From UHGV virus genome UHGV-0213391: DNA of 35,183 nt; one strand, given 5' to 3'. The notes under the pieces are model-generated. The model was not told the origin of the DNA, searched no databases, and saw nothing but the letters and a program-made list of their open reading frames with translations. Below are positions 7,657 through 31,760 of the stretch, piece after piece (positions within the stretch are counted from its first letter, which is position 1; each line of letters opens with the position of its first letter). Both the position numbers and the translations under genes were made by a program. Source of the DNA: a virus.

Positions 7657-8514
7657 ATGAGTAACGCAAAACCTTATAAACCAAAATACGAGGACAGGCA
7701 AGGCCAGCAAACGGCCCTTACCCTGTCAACCCCGAAAGAGCTTGCCGGCTTTTTGATCAAGTCAAAAACCTCCATTGCCGCCGCGCTGCCGGCCCATCTC
7801 AACCCGGACCGCATGATTCGCCTCGCGGTGACTTGCTTTTCCCAAAATCCCGCCTTGCAACGTTGCTCTGCTGTGAGCATCTTTTCCAGCTTGCTCATTG
7901 CTTCCCAGCTTGGACTTGAGCCGGGAGTTGCCGGGCAGGGGTATCTTATCCCCTACAAGGGCAAATGCACCTTTGTTCCCGGCTGGCAGGGTCTTGTTGG
8001 GCTGCTCAATAACACGGGCAGGGCTACCGCCTGGACGGGTGTAGTTTACGAGGGCGACCATTTCCAGTTTGAACTTGGGGCATATCCCATCCTCCGCCAC
8101 GTTCCCGGCATCAACTACGGGGACGAGGACAAAATGACATGGGCCTATGCCTGCGCCCGGGTCAACGGTGCGGAAACCCCTGTCATTGAGGCGTGGCCCA
8201 TGGAGCGCATCTGGCGCCACCGCGACGCGCACAACGAAGTTGGAGAAAAGCACTACTCCTACAAAAACCCCGAAATGTACGCCCGGAAGGTAGTCCTGCT
8301 GCAAGTCCTCAAGTACATGCCGAAAAGCGTCGAAGTAGCAAACGCTATCGAAGTTTCCCACGCCGCGGAAACGGGGCGCATCGTCAAAATCGATGACGGC
8401 GTTGTCATTGACGGCGAAATCGTGCCGGAAGATGACCCCGGCATGGATGACTACCCGCTGGACCGTCAAGACCAGGCTCCCGCCTCTGAACCCTCCACCC
8501 CAAACCTCCTTTAA
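7657..8514 (+). CDS. recT: RecT-family single-strand annealing protein
   Basis: 'LIASQLGLEPGVAGQGYLIPYKGKCTFVPGWQG' is the RecT core motif; the length is about 285 aa. Confidence 0.85.
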   Translation: MSNAKPYKPKYEDRQGQQTALTLSTPKELAGFLIKSKTSIAAALPAHLNPDRMIRLAVTCFSQNPALQRCSAVSIFSSLLIASQLGLEPGVAGQGYLIPYKGKCTFVPGWQGLVGLLNNTGRATAWTGVVYEGDHFQFELGAYPILRHVPGINYGDEDKMTWAYACARVNGAETPVIEAWPMERIWRHRDAHNEVGEKHYSYKNPEMYARKVVLLQVLKYMPKSVEVANAIEVSHAAETGRIVKIDDGVVIDGEIVPEDDPGMDDYPLDRQDQAPASEPSTPNLL

Positions 8515-8519
8515 ACGCC

Positions 8520-9518
8520 ATGAGCGAACAACTTGAAATCATCCCCTTGAATGTGAGCGCCAAAGGCGAAGTGCTTTCTTCCAATCTGGCCGAATTCCGC
8601 GCCTCCGTCAAAACCGTCCTGGACAGCATCAAACTCACCCCCGAAACCGATGAAGAATTCGGATTGGCTGAACAAAACGTCAAAATGCTCAAGGGAGCGG
8701 AAGATACCGTCAAGGCGGCCAGGGAAAAAGCCCTGAAGGATGCCCAGAGCCTCCATGAATTCTTTGCCGCGCTGGACGAATCCAGTGAAGAAATCCGGCA
8801 AGCCCGGCTTACCCTGGAAAAGAAGATCGCCGGAGAGAAAGAGAAAATCCGCAACAAGCTGATCGATGCCGCCCTTGCCTGCCTGGAATGTGCTCCCCAT
8901 TTGCGGAAGAAAGTATTTGGCGGCACAATGGCGGAAGCCATTAAAGGAAAACGCACCATTAAAAGCATTGAAGCTGCTTTAGATGCGGCAGTATCCGGGG
9001 TGAACAGTACCATCACCACCAACCGCGGCATCATCCTCGAATTCATGGAAGCGTACGATGGAAACCTTGTGTTGGATAAAGACGAGCTTGAAACAAGATC
9101 AACGATCTATGTTGAGTCCGAATTGCACCGCCGCCAAGATGCCGCCAACGCTGCCAAAGAGCGGGCCAGGCTGGCCGAAGAAGCCCGGAAGGCACGGGAA
9201 GAAGCCGAACAGGCAAAAACGAAACTGAAGGAGCAGGGCAAGCCTCCTGTCCCTCCGTCTCCTTCCGTCATCAACATGACCGCGTTTGAACCAGACCCGG
9301 AACCAGTTCGTGTTCCGGCTTCCGCGGCATCTCCGGCGCCGGTGAGCGAATCAGAAGAATGGAGTCAATTCCAAGCTGCCGTTTTTGGAGCCTTTGCAAA
9401 GCTCAAGGATGCCCGCGGGAAGCTCACCCACCCCGCCAACAAACGCCGCGTTGCCTATTTTGCTCAGGCCGTCAACAAGGCGTGGGAAACCTGCATAGCG
9501 GAAGGAGGTCAACAGTGA
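8520..9518 (+). CDS. Hypothetical coiled-coil protein with Pro-rich C-terminus, recombination-module associated
   Basis: Lies between recT and the exonuclease gene; no catalytic motif recognised. Confidence 0.5.
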   Translation: MSEQLEIIPLNVSAKGEVLSSNLAEFRASVKTVLDSIKLTPETDEEFGLAEQNVKMLKGAEDTVKAAREKALKDAQSLHEFFAALDESSEEIRQARLTLEKKIAGEKEKIRNKLIDAALACLECAPHLRKKVFGGTMAEAIKGKRTIKSIEAALDAAVSGVNSTITTNRGIILEFMEAYDGNLVLDKDELETRSTIYVESELHRRQDAANAAKERARLAEEARKAREEAEQAKTKLKEQGKPPVPPSPSVINMTAFEPDPEPVRVPASAASPAPVSESEEWSQFQAAVFGAFAKLKDARGKLTHPANKRRVAYFAQAVNKAWETCIAEGGQQ

Positions 9519-10153
9519 AAATCTGGCCCTCCATGGAGCAACGCTCTGACGCCTGGTTCCGCGCCCGCGCTGGCCGCCTGACGGCCAGCAACTTCAAAAA
9601 AGTACTTACCCCGAAAGGTGTAGATTCCCAATCGTGGCACAATCTCGCCCTGGAAATGTGTTGCAGCCGCGTCCGGCCCGATGAAATCCAATGGGAAGGC
9701 AACCGCCATACGGACCGCGGAACAGAACAGGAGCCGGAAGCCCGAGAAGAATTTAGCCGCATCATGGGGCTGGAAGTGGAACAGGTGGGATTTATCGTTC
9801 AAGACAATGAACTGGTGGGGTGCTCCCCTGACGGCATGATCAAAATCAATGGTGAATATGCTGCTGGGGTAGAATTCAAGTGCCCTATTTCCGTAATTCA
9901 CACACAGTACATATTGGATGGCATTTTGCCTGACAAATACAAGGCGCAGGTTCACGGCTCCATGATTGTGACGGGGCTTCCCTATTGGTATTTCATGAGC
10001 TATTGCCGCGGTTTTCGACCGTTTATTTTACGGGTGGAACGGGATAGCTACACCGACGAATTAGAAGATGCTATTGAGCGATTTATAATCTATTACGCAG
10101 ATTTTTATAAACGCAACATGCCTAAATTCGTTGAAGGAAGGAGGGCGGCATGA
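9515..10153 (+). CDS. YqaJ-like viral recombinase-type exonuclease (PD-(D/E)xK)
   Basis: SD GAAGGAGG lies 6 nt before GTG 9515. 'MEQRSDAWFRARAGRLTASNF' is the YqaJ N-terminal signature. The gene is paired with recT. Confidence 0.75.
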   Translation: MKIWPSMEQRSDAWFRARAGRLTASNFKKVLTPKGVDSQSWHNLALEMCCSRVRPDEIQWEGNRHTDRGTEQEPEAREEFSRIMGLEVEQVGFIVQDNELVGCSPDGMIKINGEYAAGVEFKCPISVIHTQYILDGILPDKYKAQVHGSMIVTGLPYWYFMSYCRGFRPFILRVERDSYTDELEDAIERFIIYYADFYKRNMPKFVEGRRAA

Positions 10154-10491
10154 GAACCAGGGCAAGAGCTATCCATCGGCCCGGCGTGATGAACAAGACG
10201 GAAGCCGCCTATGGCTTTTACTTGTCTGACCTCCAAAACAAGGGGGAAATACGGGAATTTAAGTTTGAAGCCGTCAAACTGATCTTGGGGAACCGCTGCT
10301 CATACACACCGGATTTCATGGTTGTCCGCCCAGACGGCACCCTTGAATTCCACGAAGTGAAAGGCTTTTGGCGCGACGATGCCAGGGTAAAAATCAAGAC
10401 GGCCGCCGACAAGTTCCCCTTTGTTTTTATCGCTGCCAAGCAGACAAAAACGGGTTGGGAAATCGAAACAATCCAGGAAGGAGAAAATTGA
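10150..10491 (+). CDS. DUF1064-family phage protein (PD-(D/E)xK-like; start more likely ATG 10189)
   Basis: 'MNKTEAAYGFYLSDLQNKGEIREFKFEAVKL...YTPDFMVVRPDGTLEFHEVKG' matches the DUF1064 pattern. Confidence 0.55.
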   Translation: MRTRARAIHRPGVMNKTEAAYGFYLSDLQNKGEIREFKFEAVKLILGNRCSYTPDFMVVRPDGTLEFHEVKGFWRDDARVKIKTAADKFPFVFIAAKQTKTGWEIETIQEGEN

Positions 10492-11595: not shown

Positions 11596-12577
11596 GCTAC
11601 ATCTTTTCGCGGGCGCTGGTGGAGGAATACTTGGCAGCGAGCTGCTCGGATTCCGCACCGTCTGCGCCGTCGAGCTCGAACCCTATCCCGCAAGCGTACT
11701 GCTCGCCCGACAGAATGACGGCCTACTCCCGCCTTTCCCGGTTTGGGATGACGTATGCACCTTTGACGGGCGACCATGGCGCGGCCTTGTTGACGTGGTA
11801 TCTGGAGGCTTCCCGTGCCAGGACATCAGCGCGGCAGGTAAAGGTGCCGGCATTGATGGCGCCCGCTCTGGACTCTGGCGGGAAATGCACCGGATTGTTG
11901 GCGAGGTACGACCTCAATACGTCTTTGTGGAAAACTCCCCAATGCTCACTGCTCGCGGGCTTGGATGTGTTCTTGGGGACCTGGCCGCGAGCGGGTATGA
12001 TGCGGAATGGATGGTGCTGGGGGCGGATGAAGTGGGGGCGCCGCATGAGCGAAAGCGCATGTGGATACTTGCTGTCAACTCCGCCGCTGGGGCAGGGCAT
12101 GAAATTTGCAACCCCGCAAGCCAGGGATTTCAGGACGGGAGAAGCCAGAAGATGGGACAATCTAGCCCGAAGCCGGAACCTGAACGACCAGATTGCAAAA
12201 TTCCCGACTCCAACCTCACGGGATTGGAAGGACAGCGGCTCCAGCCAGGGCAATCGGAAGTCCCCGAACCTGGGAACTATAGCCAGCAGATTTCCTACCC
12301 CAAGAACAAAAGGCATGTGCGGAGGAAGTGGGGCTTTTCAGAAAATGAAAGCCCTGGAAGCCGAAGGGATTGTCACGACGGAAGAGCGGAAACAGATGAC
12401 TGCGGGGAATGGTGGTCAGCTGAACCCGACGTGGACCGAGTGGCTCATGGGGTGGCCGCTAGAGTGGACCGCATTGAAGCCATTGGCAACGGACAAGTTC
12501 CGGCAGTGGCGGCAACTGCATTCCGGATTTTACTCGGTCGAATCATGAACTACAACCCCCAACTGACGCTTTTTTGA
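11588..12577 (+). CDS. DNA (cytosine-5)-methyltransferase, with apparent internal frame inconsistency (possibly frameshifted)
   Basis: SD AAGGAGG, then ATG. Motif I is LFAGAGGG, IV is GFPCQDIS, VI is ENSP, VIII is PHERKRMWI. Motif X 'AIGNGQVPAVAATAFRIL' is in the same frame. The TP(T/Q)ARD repeats and 'NPTWTEWLMGWPLEWT' lie in the +1 frame (ORF 11592..12548). Confidence 0.75.
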   Translation: MNELHLFAGAGGGILGSELLGFRTVCAVELEPYPASVLLARQNDGLLPPFPVWDDVCTFDGRPWRGLVDVVSGGFPCQDISAAGKGAGIDGARSGLWREMHRIVGEVRPQYVFVENSPMLTARGLGCVLGDLAASGYDAEWMVLGADEVGAPHERKRMWILAVNSAAGAGHEICNPASQGFQDGRSQKMGQSSPKPEPERPDCKIPDSNLTGLEGQRLQPGQSEVPEPGNYSQQISYPKNKRHVRRKWGFSENESPGSRRDCHDGRAETDDCGEWWSAEPDVDRVAHGVAARVDRIEAIGNGQVPAVAATAFRILLGRIMNYNPQLTLF

Positions 12578-12578
12578 T

Positions 12579-13103
12579 ATGGCACGTAAACCAACATCTT
12601 TAATACCGCGGACGCACCGGGAACTGTGCGAAATTGCTGAACGCTGGCTCATGGGCTCTGCCCGTTGCCGGGTGGCGATCGCGGAACCGAACTGCATCGT
12701 TACGGACGAGCAGCCCGACGCTATAGGTTTCAAGGGATCGTATAGCATCCTCGTTGAGGCTAAAACCAGCCGGGCGGATTTTTTGGCAGACCTCAAAAAG
12801 CCGTTCCGCCTCCGTCCTCAAAAGGGTATGGGGTATTGCCGATACTACATCTGTGAGCCGGGGATCATCACAGAAGATGACCTGCCGGAACGGTGGGGAT
12901 TACTGTATGTCCTCCCTGGCGGACGGGTTCGGATAGTTCGGTACAGCAGATATTTCCGTGAGGCAAACTACGCCGCTGAAAGGAGCCTTTTGACCGCATG
13001 CCTGTACATCCAGAAGCCGCTAAAAATCAATACTGTTCAAGGCAGGAAAATACAGCTCTCACCTGCATTTGGCGCAGAAGCAAAAGAGAAGGAGGGGATA
13101 TAG
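12579..13103 (+). CDS. PD-(D/E)xK nuclease-superfamily protein
   Basis: 'IVTDEQPDAIGFKGSYSILVEAKTSRADF' carries PD...E-A-K. Confidence 0.45.
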   Translation: MARKPTSLIPRTHRELCEIAERWLMGSARCRVAIAEPNCIVTDEQPDAIGFKGSYSILVEAKTSRADFLADLKKPFRLRPQKGMGYCRYYICEPGIITEDDLPERWGLLYVLPGGRVRIVRYSRYFREANYAAERSLLTACLYIQKPLKINTVQGRKIQLSPAFGAEAKEKEGI

Positions 13104-18011: not shown

Positions 18012-18569
18012 ATGCTTGATTTACGGGAGCAAAATCTCTTATGGTGCACCCGCAGGAAAAAGAAACAATCACCTACCACCAACAAGAAAATAGGACGGCC
18101 CAGCCTCTATACGGAGGCACTAGCCGCCGAGATAGCCTCCAGGCTGGCTGCTGGGGAAACGATGAAGTCCATCTGCTCGGACGATCACATGCCGGAGGTT
18201 TGGACGGTTTGGAATTGGCGTGAAACCAAGCCGGAGTTTTCCAAACTCATTCAACGCGCACGGGAAGCGCAGTCGGAAGCACTGCTTGACGAGTGCCAGT
18301 CTTTGTCAGATGCCGCTGCTCAGGTTGCGCTCGACCCTGAATGTGGCTCTGCCTCCGTCGCCGCGAAGAAGCTCGCCATTGAAACGCGGCTGAAAGTGGC
18401 CGCCCGCTTCGCCCCCGAGAAATTCGGCGACCGAGTCCGGCAGGATGTAGCGGGCGTTCCAGGCGCTCCATTGGAACGCAAGATCACTCTGGACCCCGAG
18501 CAGCTTGCCCGGCTCCAGGAAGACGAGAAAACCGCGCTGGAAACCATCGCTGGCAAGCTCAATCCCTAG
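18012..18569 (+). CDS. terS: Terminase small subunit
   Basis: 'GRPSLYTEALAAEIASRLAAGETMKSICSDDHMPEVWTVWNWRETKPEFSKLIQRAREAQSEALLDE' matches the Terminase_2-type TerS pattern. Confidence 0.75.
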   Translation: MLDLREQNLLWCTRRKKKQSPTTNKKIGRPSLYTEALAAEIASRLAAGETMKSICSDDHMPEVWTVWNWRETKPEFSKLIQRAREAQSEALLDECQSLSDAAAQVALDPECGSASVAAKKLAIETRLKVAARFAPEKFGDRVRQDVAGVPGAPLERKITLDPEQLARLQEDEKTALETIAGKLNP

Positions 18570-18640
18570 ACATCAGGCCATACCTCCCCGTTAGCTTCTT
18601 CCTTCGCCACATCCTCCGCCTGGATCCCTATCCCTGGCAG

Positions 18641-19948
18641 GTGGAGGCCATCAAGGCGCTATCCCTTGGCAAGATTGCCCTGGGCGGAAAAAGCGTGGCT
18701 CTGGTAGCCCCCAACGGATCAGGCAAGACAAGCAACTGCATTGCGCCGGCCATCCTGTACTTTCTCACCTGTTTTCCGCGGGGACAGGTTCCCGTCACGT
18801 CCTCTTCGTGGATGCAAGTGGAAAAGCAGCTCTTCCCGTCGCTGCGCCGCTACATGGACAACCCCTTCTTCGCCGGCTGGACGTTCAACAAGACGGAAAT
18901 CCGTACCCCTGAAGGAGGTTTTGCCGTGGGATTCTCCACCGACAACGCCGGACGCGCGGAAGGATGGCACCCGAAAATATCGCCCGACGTGGACCCGGTC
19001 TTTTACGTCCTCGACGAAGCCAAGACCATCCCGGACCCCATCTTTACCGCGGTTTCCCGCTGCACGCTCTTTCATGCGTTCATCACATCGTCACCTGGAG
19101 CTGACTCCGGCACCTTCTACGACTGCTTCCACAAAAATTCCTCCCTCTACTACAAAATCCGCGTCAAGTACGAGGACTGCCCCCACATTGAAATCAACGA
19201 CCCAGGCAAGGCTGCCCGCATCAAAAAAGAATACGGCGAGCAATCCTCCTTCTATCGCTCCGCCATCCTCGGAGAATTCACGGACCTTGACGGGCAATCC
19301 GTCATTTCCCGCCGCGCCCTCATGGAGCTGCTTAACAATCCGCCTCCCTTTTTGGACACCGGGGAGACCTGCGGCGGCTTTGACTTCGCCGCCGGAGGCG
19401 ATGAAAACGTCTTTGCTGCCGGGCAGGGCAACCGGTTCTTCATCGCGGACCACTGGGCAGACCCGGACACCGTAGGAGCGCGCGGACGGTTCCGCCGCAA
19501 GGCCGCCGAACTCGGCATTCCAGCCGACCGCATTTTCGCGGATGGAGACGGCCTTGGACTCCCCCTCATTGACGACTTCCGCGCCGAGGGCTTCCCGGTG
19601 CACTCCTACCGGGGCGGATTTCCCGCCGACGATACGCAGGCCTTTGTCAACATCCGCGCCCAGGCATGGAGAGCATTGGCACGTGCGATCGAGGAAAAAG
19701 AGCTCATCCTCGACATTGATGAGGACACCATTGAGCAGCTTGTCGCGCCGCGCGTCCAGACGGACGCAATTGGCCGCGTCAAAATCGAGAGTAAGGAGGA
19801 CATGGCGAAGCGCGGCGTCCGCTCTCCCGACCGTGCTGATGCGCTCGTCATGGCCTGGCACGCGCGCCGGCACAGCGGGCTTGTCCGGGAGCTTGGAGCG
19901 TGGTATGCCAGACATCCGGCACAAAAACGCTCCATTGGCAGATATTAG
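18641..19948 (+). CDS. terL: Terminase large subunit (probable true start upstream at AGG 18575)
   Basis: Walker A-like 'VALVAPNGSGKT', Walker B 'YVLDEAK', and a nuclease-domain C-terminus. The conserved '...LDPYPWQ' lies in-frame upstream of the first canonical start (GTG 18641). Confidence 0.85.
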   Translation: MEAIKALSLGKIALGGKSVALVAPNGSGKTSNCIAPAILYFLTCFPRGQVPVTSSSWMQVEKQLFPSLRRYMDNPFFAGWTFNKTEIRTPEGGFAVGFSTDNAGRAEGWHPKISPDVDPVFYVLDEAKTIPDPIFTAVSRCTLFHAFITSSPGADSGTFYDCFHKNSSLYYKIRVKYEDCPHIEINDPGKAARIKKEYGEQSSFYRSAILGEFTDLDGQSVISRRALMELLNNPPPFLDTGETCGGFDFAAGGDENVFAAGQGNRFFIADHWADPDTVGARGRFRRKAAELGIPADRIFADGDGLGLPLIDDFRAEGFPVHSYRGGFPADDTQAFVNIRAQAWRALARAIEEKELILDIDEDTIEQLVAPRVQTDAIGRVKIESKEDMAKRGVRSPDRADALVMAWHARRHSGLVRELGAWYARHPAQKRSIGRY

Positions 19949-20000
19949 GGTTGACAATATATCAACATATCTATATGTGTTGATGTATATTCAACCGCAG
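19945..20000. promoter_or_regulatory. AT-rich dyad-symmetric island with TTGACA between terL and the portal gene
   Basis: gggTTGACAATATATCAACATATCTATATGTGTTGATGTATATTCAACC is an extended imperfect palindrome in a GC-rich context. Confidence 0.4.
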
Positions 20001-20191
20001 GGTGGTGAAACGGTATCATATGAGGTTCCTGTCCTCATGTCGGAGGTCCAACTCCTCCCCCTGCAACCAACCTTTTTCTTTCCTCCCGCCGCAGGTTTAA
20101 CGCTGTCCGAAATATCCTCAACGCTCCGAAGCTGGTCGCCCAACAGGAGACCAGAATCAAGGAACTGGAAACAGACCTCGCCCGGCAAGCC

Positions 20192-21457
20192 TTGACGGAC
20201 CGGAGCCGCATTCCTGGCCGCCCTCAATGGTTTGAATACTGGGACCCTCTTCAGGGCGCTGGCTTGCAAACACTTATCGATGCACGCAACGAAGCTAGAC
20301 GCGGCGCCTTTGCGCGGCAAATGCTCATCTGGGACGAGGTTATCTACTCGGACGGACTTCTGGGCATGCTCTACTCCCGGTTAATTGAAAGCGTTTCCAT
20401 GCAGGGCTGGAAGATTGACGCCGCGGACGACAGCCCGGAAGCCCAGCAGCAGAAAAACGCCCTGGAAGAATTCTACAACTCCGTCAACGGACTTCAGCAG
20501 TCCTTCGGGCATCTGGCCTCCGCTCTGTTCTACGGCTACGCCCACCTCCAATATATTGAGGACGCCTGGGGCCGGAGGTTTGAATTCATTCCCCAGCGTT
20601 ACTGGGTGCGGCCCGGGGAACTTAATGAGTGGCAATTTAACCCCCACTGTTATATCGGCGTCGATATCGGGGAAAGCGTGGAAGACGAAACTCTCGTCGT
20701 GATGGAGCACCGTTACCCCATCCTGTTCCCTGCTTCCCGCGCATCCTTTGAGCGCAACCACGCCAAGATGATCTGGGACAACCACATGGACCGTTACGGC
20801 TCCGCCCCGGCTATTATCACAGCCCCCAAGGAGGCAAGCGCCGCTGTCATGGACGCACTTGAGCGCGCCTGCGAAGAGCTCAAGTCTGGCGCATCCGTCG
20901 TCCTGCCTCCCAGCTGTACAGCAGAACCCCTCAAGGCATCCTCCATCAATGAAAACTATTTCCTCTCCCGCATCAACATGGCCGACAAGGACCAGGTGCG
21001 CTTTGTCATGGCAGGAACGCTGACCGTCTTGAATGAATCAGGTTCCGGCACTCTGGCCGGGTCTGCGCATACGGACAGCTGGAACTCGGTAGTCTCCGCC
21101 GTGTGCTCCAAGGTGGCGGAAGCTTTTAACGCCTCCATCAGCCCGCTGGTACTGGGAGACGGCGAACCACTGGCCCGCCTCCAAATCACCTTTGACACCG
21201 TTCAGACGCCGCTGCAGAAGGCCGAGGAAATTGCCACTCTTGCGGATGGAGGCGTCCGTCCCGAGAAAACCGAAATCGAGGAAAAGATCGGCATGTCCAT
21301 CGAAGACACAAGGGAAACCGCTCCCGCAGCGGCTGCCGTCAACCGGGAACCGGAAGGCGCACACATCCCGCCCGACGCCTACGAACAGCTGCAGCAGCTC
21401 ATTTATACCGGGCTCATGAAAGGATTTAGCGATGATCAGTACCAAACAAATCAATGA
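20192..21457 (+). CDS. Portal protein (Mu gp29/DUF935-like; probable true start at AGG 20093)
   Basis: Position directly after terL; 421+ aa. The in-frame upstream extension 'FNAVRNILNAPKLVAQQETRIKELE...' looks coding. Confidence 0.65.
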   Translation: MTDRSRIPGRPQWFEYWDPLQGAGLQTLIDARNEARRGAFARQMLIWDEVIYSDGLLGMLYSRLIESVSMQGWKIDAADDSPEAQQQKNALEEFYNSVNGLQQSFGHLASALFYGYAHLQYIEDAWGRRFEFIPQRYWVRPGELNEWQFNPHCYIGVDIGESVEDETLVVMEHRYPILFPASRASFERNHAKMIWDNHMDRYGSAPAIITAPKEASAAVMDALERACEELKSGASVVLPPSCTAEPLKASSINENYFLSRINMADKDQVRFVMAGTLTVLNESGSGTLAGSAHTDSWNSVVSAVCSKVAEAFNASISPLVLGDGEPLARLQITFDTVQTPLQKAEEIATLADGGVRPEKTEIEEKIGMSIEDTRETAPAAAAVNREPEGAHIPPDAYEQLQQLIYTGLMKGFSDDQYQTNQ

Positions 21458-23005: not shown

Positions 23006-23225
23006 CATCAACCCCAACCAATAGAAAGACCAAAAAACAAGGGCTACTCCATTTTGCTCAGCCGTCCAGTTCACCGATGTCCTGACCGCCTACTCAGCCG
23101 GCTCCGGGAATACCGAAGAGAACTCCATTATCAGCCGCATCGCGCCGATCGTCCCGGTCTACGACCTTAACTTCCAGTACAAGGTCTGGGACACGGATTC
23201 GGCATTCACGGTCCAGCCAATCCAG

Positions 23226-23963
23226 GTGGGACCGGGCGAACCTCCCCGCCAGACCATCCTGCGCGGCAGGAACGAAACCGACACCCTTCAGGGTTACGGC
23301 TTGACCTTGCCGATTCCGGATGCCTTGCTGGGCGTCAACCGTGAAAAGGCGCAGGCTATCACCCTGGCGGAATACAAGCTCATCGAATCACAGTTCGTGA
23401 CCTCGTATGAGTATGAACGCGCCAAGCTCATCACCAGCCAGCTGCCTGCCGCAGCCGGGTACGGGGACTGGGCCAACGAACAGAAGAACCCGCTGGCGGA
23501 CCTCGACAAGGCAATCCTGTCCATCAATGCGGCTACCGGACGCATGCCGAATACCATCGTCTTTGGCATCAACGCCTGGCAGCTCCTGCGAGCCAACCCC
23601 ATTGCCAGACAGGTGGTGTCATTCAACAGTGTCGGCCTTTTCAACGAAGACCTGCTCCGCAATGCGCTGATTCGGCCTATCAGGGATATTTACATCGCAG
23701 CCATGCCCTACCGCGACGCTTCCGGCGACGCCAAGACCATCATGGAGAACGAAGTCTATGTCCTGTACAAGGAAGACTCCCCGACGCAGTTCGACGCCTC
23801 TGCCATCAAGACGTTTGGTTTGTCCGGCAAGCTCCGTCGCGAAGTCATCACGGAATACAAGCCGACTCCCGCTCTGACGCTGGTAACCAACCGTGTCTAC
23901 TCGCTGACCAAGCTGACCAACCCGTCCGCCATCGTCCGCATCGACGCGACGGCCACGGCTTAA
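23226..23963 (+). CDS. Putative major capsid protein (coding appears to begin at AGG 23040)
   Basis: Position after the protease/scaffold. The in-frame upstream 'ATPFCSAVQFTDVLTAYSAGSGNTEENSIISRIAPIVPVYDLNFQYKVWDTD' looks coding and has no ATG/GTG/TTG. Confidence 0.55.
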   Translation: MGPGEPPRQTILRGRNETDTLQGYGLTLPIPDALLGVNREKAQAITLAEYKLIESQFVTSYEYERAKLITSQLPAAAGYGDWANEQKNPLADLDKAILSINAATGRMPNTIVFGINAWQLLRANPIARQVVSFNSVGLFNEDLLRNALIRPIRDIYIAAMPYRDASGDAKTIMENEVYVLYKEDSPTQFDASAIKTFGLSGKLRREVITEYKPTPALTLVTNRVYSLTKLTNPSAIVRIDATATA

Positions 23964-27213: not shown

Positions 27214-27320
27214 TCATTTCCAGCATCAGGGCTACTACATACGATCCCACCTTTTCTAACCGCAACGTCACGCCGCAGATTACCGGCGTTCTGGCGATTT
27301 TCCTCCCCGACGGCATCAAG

Positions 27321-27878
27321 GTGACCGAAGACGGGGGAGTTTCCTACGTCACCGGACCGGACCAGTTTCCGACGCCTCCCACGGCTCCGCCCGCCGATCC
27401 GACAGCCGGGCCTGAACAGCCCTGGGTGAGTTTCGGGCTTTTGGGCGCGTTCCAGTCCGTCGCCACACAGGTCGAAGGGGAAGTAACGCGCTTTTACGGC
27501 GGCAATCTCGGCTACCGGCAGCAGCGAAAGAACACCACGACCGGCAAGCGGTTGACGTTCACCACGCCGGACATGTCCCCGGAATATTTCCAACTGGCGT
27601 TCGCTCTGGGAGCCGCCCCCGCCAACGGCGAGGAATCGACCACCGTCGGACACGGAGGCGACAACAAGATCGAAGGGTATCTTCATTTCTGGTATCAGAA
27701 TGACGTGGGTACGATCTATTTGGTCGGAACCGCGCATGGCGCTTTGCGCCTGCTGCAGGACCCCGAGCACACCACGGCGATTGCTTCGCCCCAGTTCGAG
27801 TTCGAAATGGATTACCGCGGCCAGTACCAGTTCACGCCCTCCAATGTGCAGGACGTGACGCCGGTCCCGGGCTCCTGA
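27321..27878 (+). CDS. Putative major tail protein (coding appears to begin at AGG 27228)
   Basis: Followed by a strong terminator. The in-frame upstream '[31 protein letters not shown]' starts 15 nt after the previous stop. Confidence 0.5.
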
Positions 27879-27890
27879 CGTGTTTCACCA

Positions 27891-27922
27891 GGGGGCCGCG
27901 CGCCCCCGCATCCCCTTTTTTT
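27891..27922 (+). terminator. Rho-independent terminator
   Basis: GGGGGC-CGCGC-GCCCCC hairpin followed by a T7 run. Confidence 0.65.
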
Positions 27923-27985
27923 CCCAGGCAGCAGGCAGGCAAATACGATATACGGACAGTCACGGGGCTCAACCAGTCACTGGTA

Positions 27986-30043
27986 GTGCGCGTGGTGGAT
28001 TTCCAGGGGGATCCCGTCGATATGGGCGGCGTCACCCTGCGCGGAGCCGTTCGCCTCAAGACGGGTATCGCCGAGTTCGGCTTTTCCCGTGACGACGAGG
28101 GCAACGGCGTGATTTCGTGGGCCTCGGTGCCCGCGGGCATGTGGTCCTACGATGTCTTCATGGATGACGGCAATGAGGAAAGCCCGCTTCTCTATGGATG
28201 CTTTGTTTCCTCAGGCCGGGTGACGCCGGACTTGCCGGACGAGCAGCAGGCGGTAGCGGGTGCGGTCGTCGTGCAGCTGCCGGAAGGAAGCGGATGCGTG
28301 CAGGTGGTGCTTGATAATGCGTCAAGCGCCGCCTGGTACGCGGAGCAGGCCAAGAAGTACGCCGAGAATTTCAATCTTTCGGTGGACCGGGTCACTACCG
28401 GCGAACCTGGCACTCCTGCCGCAGCGGAAGCCGTGAAAGGCTCGGAAGCGGGCTCTTATCTGTTGTCGTTTACCATCCCCAAAGGAGACGCCGGCCCCGA
28501 AGGCCCACCAGGCCCGCAGGGGGAACCGGGCGAAACCGGCCCCGAAGGCCCCCAGGGTCCCAGGGGCGACGCAGGACCTCAAGGTCCTCAGGGAGCGACC
28601 GGAGAACAGGGACCAAGAGGCGACATTGGAGAAACCGGACCGCAGGGTCCTGCCGGCCCGCAAGGACCCGAGGGGCCGGAGGGGCCCCAAGGGCCCCGTG
28701 GCGAGAAAGGAGATACGGGGGATGTTAATCCGGACGGTTCTTATAACTGGACGCAGCCGCAGACCTACGACGCCACGATCACCGCAATCGAAGGAGTCCG
28801 TGTGCCGCTGCCCGCCACAGGGCAGAATGCCATTTCCTATGAGGGAATGATAACCATGACGGCTGCCGGCCAATGGAGCCGCACCAATTATTTTCTGGAA
28901 TCCGTCATTCCGTCATGGGTGACTGCCTTGGCGGAAGCCCAGTCGTTGAGCACAAGCTACGCAATTGCTACCGCTAACGCCTCCCTGAAGAAGGGAGTAT
29001 TTAATAACGACTTGTGCGATATGGTGTTAACCATGACGGCGGCAGGGGGTGTTTCTGTTATCGGCAAATCCACGGGATCATGGAAATTTGCCAATTACAT
29101 GGGCAACAATAGAAATAACGAATATGCTGCCGCTTGCGTCTGGCGGATACTTGGCTCTGACAAGGTGTCGGTCCTCTTGGGCAGCACTGCCCAAGGGTAC
29201 GCTACGACTGCCGATCCGCTGGCGTCCTGCTATGCACATCCTGTGCACTGGGTGGATTATGCCTGGGATAATGCAAATTACAGATACCCTCAAAACAATA
29301 CAGTCAATGGAGCGAGAGGGGGCGACAATGTGCCGGCGTATCAGATCACTACCTACCCTATGGGGTATCTGGGGAGCAATAAGTCGGCCTTGATAAGAGG
29401 AACGTTTTATGGACCCCTCAAGGTAGATTCCCATTATGTTTGGGCATTGGCTCCGGCTTTTACCTACGTCTCCGCGGCCATGACGCCACCCAACCCCGAT
29501 GACCAGGAGATTTACAATCGCTGGGCTTTGTTTGTGGACAAGCAATATGTAATGGATATGGCTTCCTCCTTTTGGGGCGCCGGCAACACAGCATGCCTTA
29601 CAACCAAATTCAAAGCACACGAAGTCAGCGGGACTTATCAGGCGGGCCTCCGTATGGGAGGGATAAGGATAGACAATGTACCCTCACTGGGCATAACCAA
29701 TTCCTGGGGCCTCATGAAGGACACGGTAATGGAGGGTGTGACGCCTAAACCAGTTCCAGAAGTAACGGCTTCTGCGCAGGAAGTTCCGGCCTCTGGCGGC
29801 GAGGTGACATTGACGGCGTCTTCCACCCTCTCCGAAGCTATCTATGTGCTGAACGATACCATGTGCGGACATGACCCCGCCGCTGTGTGGTGCACGCAAT
29901 CCTCTGAAGAAATAGGGTCCGGCGGCCAGGTTGTCCTGACGCTGGCGGCCAACACGACCGGGCAACCCCGGCAAGTGTGGGCGTTTGTCGGCCACCATTA
30001 CGCCGAGGCCGCTGTTGTAGAAATCAACCAATTAGCACAATAA
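27986..30043 (+). CDS. Collagen-like tail fibre protein (probable start at AGG 27926)
   Basis: About 80 G-X-Y triplets ([29 protein letters not shown]...). The C-terminal globular domain is typical of a receptor-binding fibre. Confidence 0.8.
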
Positions 30044-31163: not shown

Positions 31164-31334
31164 TCAACTGTAAAGTTTTTCTTACAAGTTCATACATATT
31201 AATAACCAATCAATTAAAGGAGAATACCCAGGAAAATAGCCATTGATATAGGCCATGCCAACAACACCGGAGCCCGTGGAAACAGGCTTGAAGAACACGC
31301 CGTAGCAGCGACGATTGCGGAACGCCTCGCGCCT

Positions 31335-31760
31335 ATGCTCAGAAAGCTGGGCGCCCAGGTGGATGTAATTGACTTTCCGACCCGGAACAACACGGACGAC
31401 CTGAACGCCACCATCAAGGCCGCCAACGAAGGCGGCTACGACTTCGGGATTTCCCTGCATTGTGACTCATCGGATAATGTGCAAGCTCACGGCGCCCATG
31501 TGTGCTTCTATCCCGGGAGCGTTAAGGGAAGCCGGCTTGCCATGTGCGTCGCGGAACCTCTTGCCCGGCTGCTCCCAGGACGGGCCAACACCGTGCAGTC
31601 CCGTCCGGGGCTGGCCGTCCTGAAAAGGACGCGCTGCCCGTGGGTGCTGTGCGAATGCGGCTTTATCACCAATCCTGAAAATGCCGCCCTTATGAAGGAC
31701 CATCCCGAAGCCATTGCGGAAGCCATTGCGGAAGGAGTGAAGGCCTATTCCAAGCTGTAG
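31335..31760 (+). CDS. N-acetylmuramoyl-L-alanine amidase (Amidase_3) endolysin; the catalytic N-terminus starts at AGG 31230
   Basis: In-frame upstream 'KIAIDIGHANNTGARGNRLEEHAV' carries the Zn ligands H and E. 'ISLHCDS' and 'CECGFITNPENAA' are also present. SD AAGGAG lies 7 nt before AGG 31230. The first canonical ATG is 31335. Confidence 0.85.
   Translation: MLRKLGAQVDVIDFPTRNNTDDLNATIKAANEGGYDFGISLHCDSSDNVQAHGAHVCFYPGSVKGSRLAMCVAEPLARLLPGRANTVQSRPGLAVLKRTRCPWVLCECGFITNPENAALMKDHPEAIAEAIAEGVKAYSKL

Follow-up and report, generated by a model that had tools for sequence, protein, structure and literature searches.

To our knowledge, all described natural cellular and phage systems start their proteins with one initiator transfer RNA (tRNA), tRNA(CAU). 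Start codons other than AUG are read by this same tRNA through imperfect pairing. A rare natural non-canonical start is the AUU of infC, whose near-cognate pairing with the host tRNAfMet yields a low expression tuned by initiation factor 3 (IF3). In bacterial initiator tRNAs, the combination of a 1:72 mismatch with 2:71 and 3:70 steers the molecule to formylation and away from EF-Tu, and the G:C pairs of the anticodon stem favour P-site binding; IF3 checks the complementarity between codon and anticodon, not AUG as such. An older engineered pair associates an amber initiator tRNA(CUA) with a UAG start. Among phages, the stop-codon-recoded crAss-like and Lak phages encode suppressor tRNAs that reassign stop codons in elongation. 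An engineered E. coli initiator tRNA(CCU) combined with an AGG start was the best of 12 codon–anticodon pairs, its fold-changes (35- to 402-fold) exceeding those of the others in each strain tested (bioRxiv 10.64898/2026.04.16.719103). As a start codon of wild-type E. coli, AGG is non-cognate and is suppressed by IF3 (PMC6868393). Another rare natural non-canonical start is the GTC of Streptomyces sigR (PMC5472188). The DNA considered here is the UHGV virus genome UHGV-0213391 (35,183 nucleotides, the whole of which is called the window hereafter). Seven of its late genes, that of the endolysin amidase among them, open with AGG, and a phage-encoded, initiator-like tRNA(CCU) is likely, on the evidence of sequence comparison, to be what makes AGG a start codon. 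Full-text literature searches brought up engineered non-AUG initiator tRNAs only, and no natural system in phages; most subscription journals lie outside that coverage, and the absence of a published natural counterpart is thus unproven.

The phage tRNA has in common with the engineered initiator tRNA(CCU) an initiator-type body, an anticodon other than CAU and a complementary non-AUG start, the CCU/AGG pair being the same in both. The engineered molecules differ from E. coli tRNAfMet by point mutations and were used with reporters; the phage tRNA, by contrast, is natural and diverged (74 nucleotides, U11:A24, an odd T-loop) and goes with a particular set of late genes, its function being deduced from sequence. 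It would resemble the crAss-like and Lak suppressor tRNAs in altering the reading of particular codons in late, structural or lysis genes of the phage itself, genes that thereby come to depend on the phage tRNA for their expression and that standard gene callers misannotate, but the codon reassigned here would be a sense codon, turned into a start, at initiation. As in infC and sigR, a start other than ATG, GTG or TTG would be conserved for regulatory reasons; unlike in these genes, a dedicated cognate tRNA would be supplied and the genes concerned include those of the most abundant virion proteins.

AGG start codons in the late genes

The window is an Akkermansia (pro)phage, 83.7% identical to Akkermansia phage DTMo-2021a over 80% of a 15-kb query. 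A scan for open frames that run a long way before their first canonical start identified seven late genes opening with AGG, all on the plus strand: those of the small (terS) and large (terL) terminase subunits, the portal, the major capsid protein, a tail protein, the tail fibre and the amidase. Their AGG codons sit just after the stop of the preceding gene or after a terminator. They were compared among 35 related IMG/VR contigs gathered via the capsid gene, hereafter the relatives, 15 of which extend to the amidase. The terS gene (18054..18569, PHROG phrog_1482) starts with AGG in 34 of 34 relatives; the sequence upstream of it is unrelated among them, and many carry an in-frame TAG three codons upstream. 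ATG 18012 was discarded as its start, as relatives have GTG or GCG in its place and all 34 keep AGG 18054. The terL gene (18575..19948, phrog_2) begins 5 nucleotides past the terS stop, also with AGG in 34/34, and in L039, one of the sequences compared, an ATG lies one codon away from the AGG position. The gene of the Mu-type portal (20093..21457, Pfam Portal_Mu) begins 23 nucleotides past the tRNA, again with an AGG found in all 34 relatives; insertions and deletions that are not multiples of three occur directly upstream of this AGG in relatives, and a TTG occupies the equivalent place in L040, which lacks the tRNA.

The major capsid gene (23040..23963, phrog_1005) has its AGG in all 35 relatives, in the context aaaaaaca AGG gct. 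Between this AGG and the first GTG, the variable sites number 2, 1 and 26 at the first, second and third codon positions, respectively. Capsid homologues that have a canonical start display a methionine in the column of the AGG (P0001, P0005 and P0047, 83%, 67% and 55% identical), the N-termini MPNNFCTAVQF and MANLFYSAVQF of homologues facing (AGG)ATPFCSAVQF in the window. A tail-region gene of unknown family (27228..27878) starts with AGG in 26/26 relatives and with ATG in L040, its variable sites being distributed 3/3/16 over the codon positions. The gene of the collagen-repeat tail fibre (27926..30043, Pfam Collagen, PHROG tail fibre) has AGG in 25/25 relatives and ATG in both L039 and L040. 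The DNA between these last two genes holds GGGGCCGCGCGCCCCC, a palindrome rich in GC, and next to it a T-run (27892-27925), and the AGG of the fibre gene comes directly afterwards; this hairpin and T-run look like a terminator. Another AGG, at 27890, was rejected as the fibre start, as it lies inside the GC hairpin before the T-run and is AAG in four relatives, AGG 27926 being the conserved one.

Altogether, the six AGG starts outside the amidase are invariant in 25 to 35 contigs, the DNA upstream of them varying with frame-breaking indels and the second and third codons of the genes varying among relatives. Summed over six genes, the variable sites between the AGG and the first canonical start are distributed 16/8/79 by codon position. 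The genes that start with ATG in the window do so in all relatives as well. Sequencing or assembly error was rejected as the source of the AGG codons, which recur in up to 35 independent metagenomic contigs. Inside the late genes, AGG is the rarest of the six arginine codons, with 21 occurrences among 5503 internal codons (3.8 per 1000), as compared to its place at the head of 7 of about 21 late genes. At the background frequency, the binomial probability of such an excess is near 1e-12, a figure that is merely illustrative, AGG having guided the choice of start positions; conservation among relatives is free of this circularity.

The phage-encoded tRNA(CCU)

The window contains a single tRNA (19996-20069, plus strand), located between terL and the portal gene. 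Its anticodon is CCU, and ARAGORN, like the public annotation, labels it tRNA-Arg. It matches the Rfam tRNA family with a score of 49.9 bits, the 1:72 pair being flagged as non-standard. Its sequence reads CGCAGGG-UG-GUGA-AACGGUA-UCAU-A-UGAGG-UUCCUGU-CCUCA-UGUC-GGAGG-UCCAACU-CCUCC-CCCUGCA-A-CCA, with the initiator-type features C1xA72, G2:C71, C3:G70 and A73, and an encoded CCA. Twelve distinct variants occur among 35 copies of this tRNA, and all 20 stem pairs are paired in each of them, eight through compensatory double changes. Conversely, C1xA72 is unpaired in 12/12 variants, even in one with two compensatory changes in the acceptor stem; pairing is constant in the rest of this stem, six pairs in all, with covariation at 4:69 and 7:66. 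No variant departs from the CCU anticodon, G2:C71, C3:G70 or A73. In most variants the anticodon stem is CGGGG/CCCCG, with the three consecutive G:C pairs that typify bacterial initiators, and a few have U31:G39. Judging from this pattern of variation, the tRNA is a structured RNA under selection, in which both the 1:72 mismatch and the CCU anticodon are conserved.

The resemblance to bacterial tRNAfMet resides in C1xA72, G2:C71, C3:G70, A73 and the G:C pairs of the anticodon stem (three in most relatives), and extends to the acceptor stem as a whole, CGCAGGG/CCCUGCA in the phage and CGCGGGG/CCCCGCA in E. coli. The differences are the anticodon, CCU instead of CAU in every copy, U11:A24 instead of A11:U24, shorter D and variable loops, and the UCCAACU T-loop. 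The molecule also departs from an ordinary elongator tRNA-Arg(CCU), its 1:72 position being unpaired and its position 20 being U rather than A. With its CCU anticodon it does not qualify as a tRNAfMet, although it may act as an initiator does.

Several observations weigh against such a role. The tRNA of the window itself, with A29:U41, G30:C40 and G31:C39, has two of the three G:C pairs. In all 12 variants, U11:A24 is elongator-like, as compared to A11:U24 in initiators. The T-loop UCCAACU (20047-20053) is unusual, with a C where the near-universal U55 is expected, and the elbow of this tRNA and of that of contig L045 (see below) may be unusual. As to charging, the D-loop AACGGUA places a U at position 20, as in tRNAfMet, and not A20, the identity nucleotide used by the E. 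coli arginyl-tRNA synthetase; CCU is, conversely, not an anticodon of the methionyl-tRNA synthetase. Finally, about two thirds of the late genes still start with ATG. Arginine is the obvious candidate for the amino acid carried, in view of C35 and U36; methionine is possible but unlikely.

Two other roles were considered for this tRNA and rejected. Codon supplementation fails to explain it because internal AGG is so rare in the late genes. An attP site or integration remnant does not fit with a tRNA that is full-length, structurally conserved and placed between terL and the portal gene. The base preceding the start codon is C at six of the seven AGG starts and at 7 of 13 ATG starts. No covariation was detected between this messenger RNA base and position 37 of the tRNA, which is G, or A in the L026 type: the C stays at -1.

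Co-occurrence of the tRNA and the AGG starts

The initial annotation had left the AGG starts without a cause; across the relatives, tRNA(CCU) co-occurs with them. It is present in every IMG/VR relative that extends to its site, and these contigs carry the conserved AGG starts. Three further cases differ in their sets of AGG genes. L036, a chromosomal prophage of A. muciniphila, possesses the tRNA and five to six AGG starts (terL, portal, capsid, tail and fibre genes, and probably terS), its amidase gene starting with ATG. L039 also has the tRNA, with only two to three AGG starts (portal and tail genes, possibly terS), its terL, capsid and fibre genes starting with ATG. L040 and L041 are syntenic with the window and have a capsid 83% identical; they are devoid of the tRNA and of any AGG start, all these genes being canonical. 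The differences between these sets mean that individual genes have repeatedly changed their start from one of ATG and AGG to the other. The tRNA has been kept in every case with one AGG start or more.

Unrelated lineages pairing tRNA(CCU) with AGG starts

A search by pattern for sequences combining an acceptor stem of initiator type and the anticodon CCU retrieved comparable tRNAs elsewhere; 15 of the 17 hits of the genome-wide pattern scan were discarded as chance matches within ABC-transporter coding sequence. L048, an IMG/VR viral contig with 41% GC, and L061, a prophage in a metagenome-assembled genome (MAG) of Clostridia, both have a C1xA72 tRNA(CCU). In these two, the genes of the major head protein and of at least one other protein start with a Shine-Dalgarno (SD) motif, 8 nucleotides, then AGG. 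The first canonical start of the head gene is found 78 codons downstream of the AGG, which is conserved between the two phages, and positions 4-294 of the PHROG major head profile align with the head protein from residue 2 onwards. The tRNA and AGG-start gene loci are L048:13179-13253, 9109-10161, 8109-9047 and 12547-12909, on the minus strand, and L061:2058-2132, 5151 and 2411.

The third case is L045, a tRNA-rich phage contig with 33% GC. Its initiator-type tRNA(CCU) (L045:231-304, loop CUCCUAA) passes the Rfam tRNA threshold. Seven structural genes preceded by an SD motif start with AGG (at 1794, 3995, 6344, 8628, 9047, 10283 and 14166), including those of the portal, major head, major tail and tape-measure proteins, versus five SD-led ATG starts in the same 15 kb. 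The major tail open reading frame (ORF) of L045, 9047-9490, contains no ATG, GTG or TTG anywhere. The Akkermansia phage family, L048/L061 and L045 are unrelated lineages, each of which pairs tRNA(CCU) with AGG-start genes.

Some additional observations were made on these contigs and others. The L045 tRNA has atypical D and T loops, and the tRNA cluster of this contig contains a match to the Rfam skipping-rope RNA (L045:1317-1430, 56.7 bits). An Alphaproteobacteria MAG, L067, harbours a textbook initiator tRNA (L067:140-216) identical to E. coli tRNAfMet at 72 of 77 bases but with the anticodon CCU instead of CAU, and with promoter-like and terminator-like flanks of its own; no AGG-start genes were seen near it within the 8 kb examined, and either a genuine variant or an error of assembly could account for it. 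C1xA72 tRNA(CCU) genes are also found on two viral contigs, L047:11546-11619 (41% GC) and L050:336-409 (minus strand, 27% GC), the limited flanking DNA of which displays no convincing AGG-start genes.

Initiation by the host tRNA as an alternative

The explanation that best withstands these data, besides initiation by the phage tRNA, is that the host fMet-tRNA(CAU) reads the AGG starts inefficiently, as near-cognate codons, and that the phage tRNA(CCU) is an elongator tRNA-Arg serving rare AGG codons or escape from a host tRNA nuclease. AGG differs from AUG by one base only, a mismatch at the middle position, and the tRNA-Arg label given by ARAGORN and the elongator-like U11:A24 pair are in keeping with an elongator. 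In E. coli, moreover, a low level of initiation at AGG is measurable (PMC6868393). Low-level initiation at a codon suppressed by IF3 is, however, a poor fit for the major capsid, portal and major tail genes, which need a high expression. The C1xA72 mismatch, kept in 12/12 variants and recurring in three unrelated phage lineages, also argues against an elongator, mismatches of this type disfavouring EF-Tu binding. The rarity of internal AGG codons leaves an elongator with little to decode, and the tRNA is lost exactly where the AGG starts are absent. This explanation is therefore considered improbable, and initiation at AGG by the phage tRNA(CCU), which sequence comparison strongly supports, is preferred.

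The endolysin amidase

The amidase gene (31230..31760, plus strand, 176 codons and a stop) encodes an N-acetylmuramoyl-L-alanine amidase of the Amidase_3 family. Direct reading of the DNA bears out the order described in the initial annotation: the TAA stop at 31215-17 is followed by an SD-like AAGGAG (31217..31222), a 7-nucleotide spacer (aataccc) and the AGG (31230..31232). The SD-like motif is kept as AAAGGAGAATA in 14 of 15 relatives, be the start AGG or ATG. The start itself is AGG in 11/15 relatives and ATG, at the same codon, in the four others, as it is in L036 and in the more distant L040; one ATG-bearing relative has an in-frame TAA directly 5' of the start. The open frame extends from 31218 to a stop at 31758-60, and ATG 31335, codon 36 counted from the AGG, is the earliest ATG, GTG or TTG in it. 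Downstream of the AGG the sequence continues AAA ATA GCC ATT GAT ATA GGC CAT GCC AAC AAC ACC GGA GCC CGT GGA, the residues encoded right after it being KIAIDIGHANNTGARG. Started at AGG 31230, the protein would have the N-terminus X-KIAIDIGHANNTGAR, where X is the residue carried by the tRNA. Between AGG 31230 and ATG 31335, variable sites among relatives are distributed 7/2/17 over the three codon positions, and codon differences are synonymous in 86 cases vs 29 non-synonymous ones, from which it follows that this segment is translated.

The full domain is recovered from the AGG. Residues 3-171 cover positions 1-173 of the 174 of the Pfam Amidase_3 profile (PF01520) with 101.3 bits (E=8e-29), well above the curated cut-off of 27 bits, and the protein matches PHROG endolysin families, phrog_435 among them (E=3e-42). 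An alignment with PDB 3QAY spans residues 2-170. By homology to this structure, the predicted equivalents of the zinc ligands are H9 (31254-31256), E21 (31290-31292) and H77 (31458), and the conserved glutamate is E142, within an LCECGF motif. A start at ATG 31335 would remove the 34 N-terminal codons (31233..31334), which include the predicted H9 and E21; the earlier statement that such a product lacks two of the three zinc ligands thus agrees with the alignment. The amidase resembles the Amidase_3 endolysins CD27L (PDB 3QAY) and PlyPSA (PDB 1XOV) in its single zinc amidase domain of full length, its H...E...H ligands and its conserved glutamate; it differs from them by its lack of a cell-wall-binding domain, its Akkermansia host and its AGG start. 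As far as comparative analysis can tell, the amidase gene is an intact endolysin gene with AGG 31230 as its start codon. The dependence on unusual initiation put forward in the initial annotation gains support from the interchange of AGG and ATG at one codon, the coding-type variation and the complete Amidase_3 domain, whereas its alternative of a lysis-defective prophage is at odds with an arrangement conserved across dozens of independent assemblies.

It could be argued that the amidase starts at another rare codon, ATA 31224, ATA 31248 or ATT 31242, and that the AGG is an internal arginine codon. Such in-frame ATA and ATT codons are present, and public versions of 178 (MPRKIAID...) and 170 (MGHANN...) amino acids imply ATA starts, assigned to some copies by the NCBI pipeline. 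Their spacing is unfavorable, however: ATA 31224 lies 1 nucleotide past the SD motif and ATT 31242 lies 19, as compared to the optimal 7 for AGG. The ATG of relatives falls exactly on the AGG codon, and in the relative mentioned above the upstream ATA cannot be the start because of the in-frame TAA that separates it from the ATG. The 170-residue version would also remove positions 1-5 of the Amidase_3 profile, and the other six AGG genes have no ATA or ATT alternative at their conserved boundary. This possibility is very unlikely. That the gene is damaged, yielding only an inactive product of 141 residues from ATG 31335 in a lysis-defective prophage, or that the AGG is a sequencing error for ATG, is barely credible: most public annotations do give the 141-residue ORF and AGG is not a recognised start codon, but the same AGG occurs in 11 independent assemblies, the 141-residue ORF recurs unchanged on over 1000 contigs, purifying selection acts on the 34 codons upstream of it (86 vs 29; 7/2/17) and six other essential genes share the AGG start.

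The lengths of the amidase in public records reflect these choices. Four N-termini coexist, corresponding to 141 amino acids (ATG), 170 and 178 (assumed ATA) and 176 (natural ATG variants), in records DAP17403.1, GKI07898.1, WP_257228347.1 and WP_404838803.1. The capsid protein is likewise recorded with 245 or 278 amino acids, as compared to 307 from the AGG. Initiation at AGG, if true, would account for this systematic misannotation of amidase and capsid lengths in the databases.

Proposed mechanism and implications

In the mechanism favoured here, the phage tRNA(CCU) would be aminoacylated, accepted by the formyltransferase and by IF2 and IF3, and would initiate at AGG as a second initiator, reading the seven AGG starts cognately in the ribosomal P site. 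Its presence would allow full-length synthesis of the amidase and of the proteins of the six other genes. Their dependence on a phage-made tRNA would act as a translational lock or late switch that prevents any stray transcripts of a lysogen from yielding packaging, virion or lysis proteins. That the AGG genes serve packaging, the virion and lysis in all three lineages points to a gate on late functions at the level of translation; such a gate might keep the terminase and endolysin silent in lysogens, or time their synthesis. With less confidence than for the role of the tRNA itself, we lean towards the broader view that unrelated temperate and lytic phages, infecting Akkermansia, Clostridia and a low-GC host, carry a private orthogonal initiation channel, in which an initiator-derived tRNA(CCU) reassigns the sense codon AGG as a start for packaging, virion and lysis genes, with a first residue that is probably not methionine, and which is used as a late switch or safety lock.

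If this holds true, it would be a natural orthogonal initiation system, something so far restricted to synthetic-biology constructs, and would reveal a further level at which phage genes are controlled, a phage tRNA gating the translation of the capsid, terminase and endolysin messages. It would raise the question of which amino acid begins the AGG-start proteins. It would also supply parts already tried out by evolution for use in orthogonal expression and in the biocontainment of phages, and it would concern prophages of Akkermansia muciniphila, a medically interesting gut bacterium.

Other features of the window

An eighth AGG start may exist at position 513, in the frame 459-2690 (caagcagc AGG aac cat), with a TTG nine codons downstream; this region is outside the coverage of the relatives. 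A 217-codon ORF starting with ATG (19542-20195, plus strand) runs across the tRNA and is almost certainly spurious, terL ending at 19948 and the portal gene starting at 20093. Just upstream of the tRNA, on the plus strand, a TTGACA (19951-19956) is embedded in a 22-nucleotide imperfect inverted repeat (19949-19970/19975-19996, 82% complementary) that abuts the 5' end of the tRNA. The TTGACA is conserved in all relatives, and the tRNA-less L040 also has one at the same intergenic site (L040:1588-1593). This TTGACA and inverted repeat, which together span 19949..19996, are possibly a regulated promoter or operator of the tRNA.

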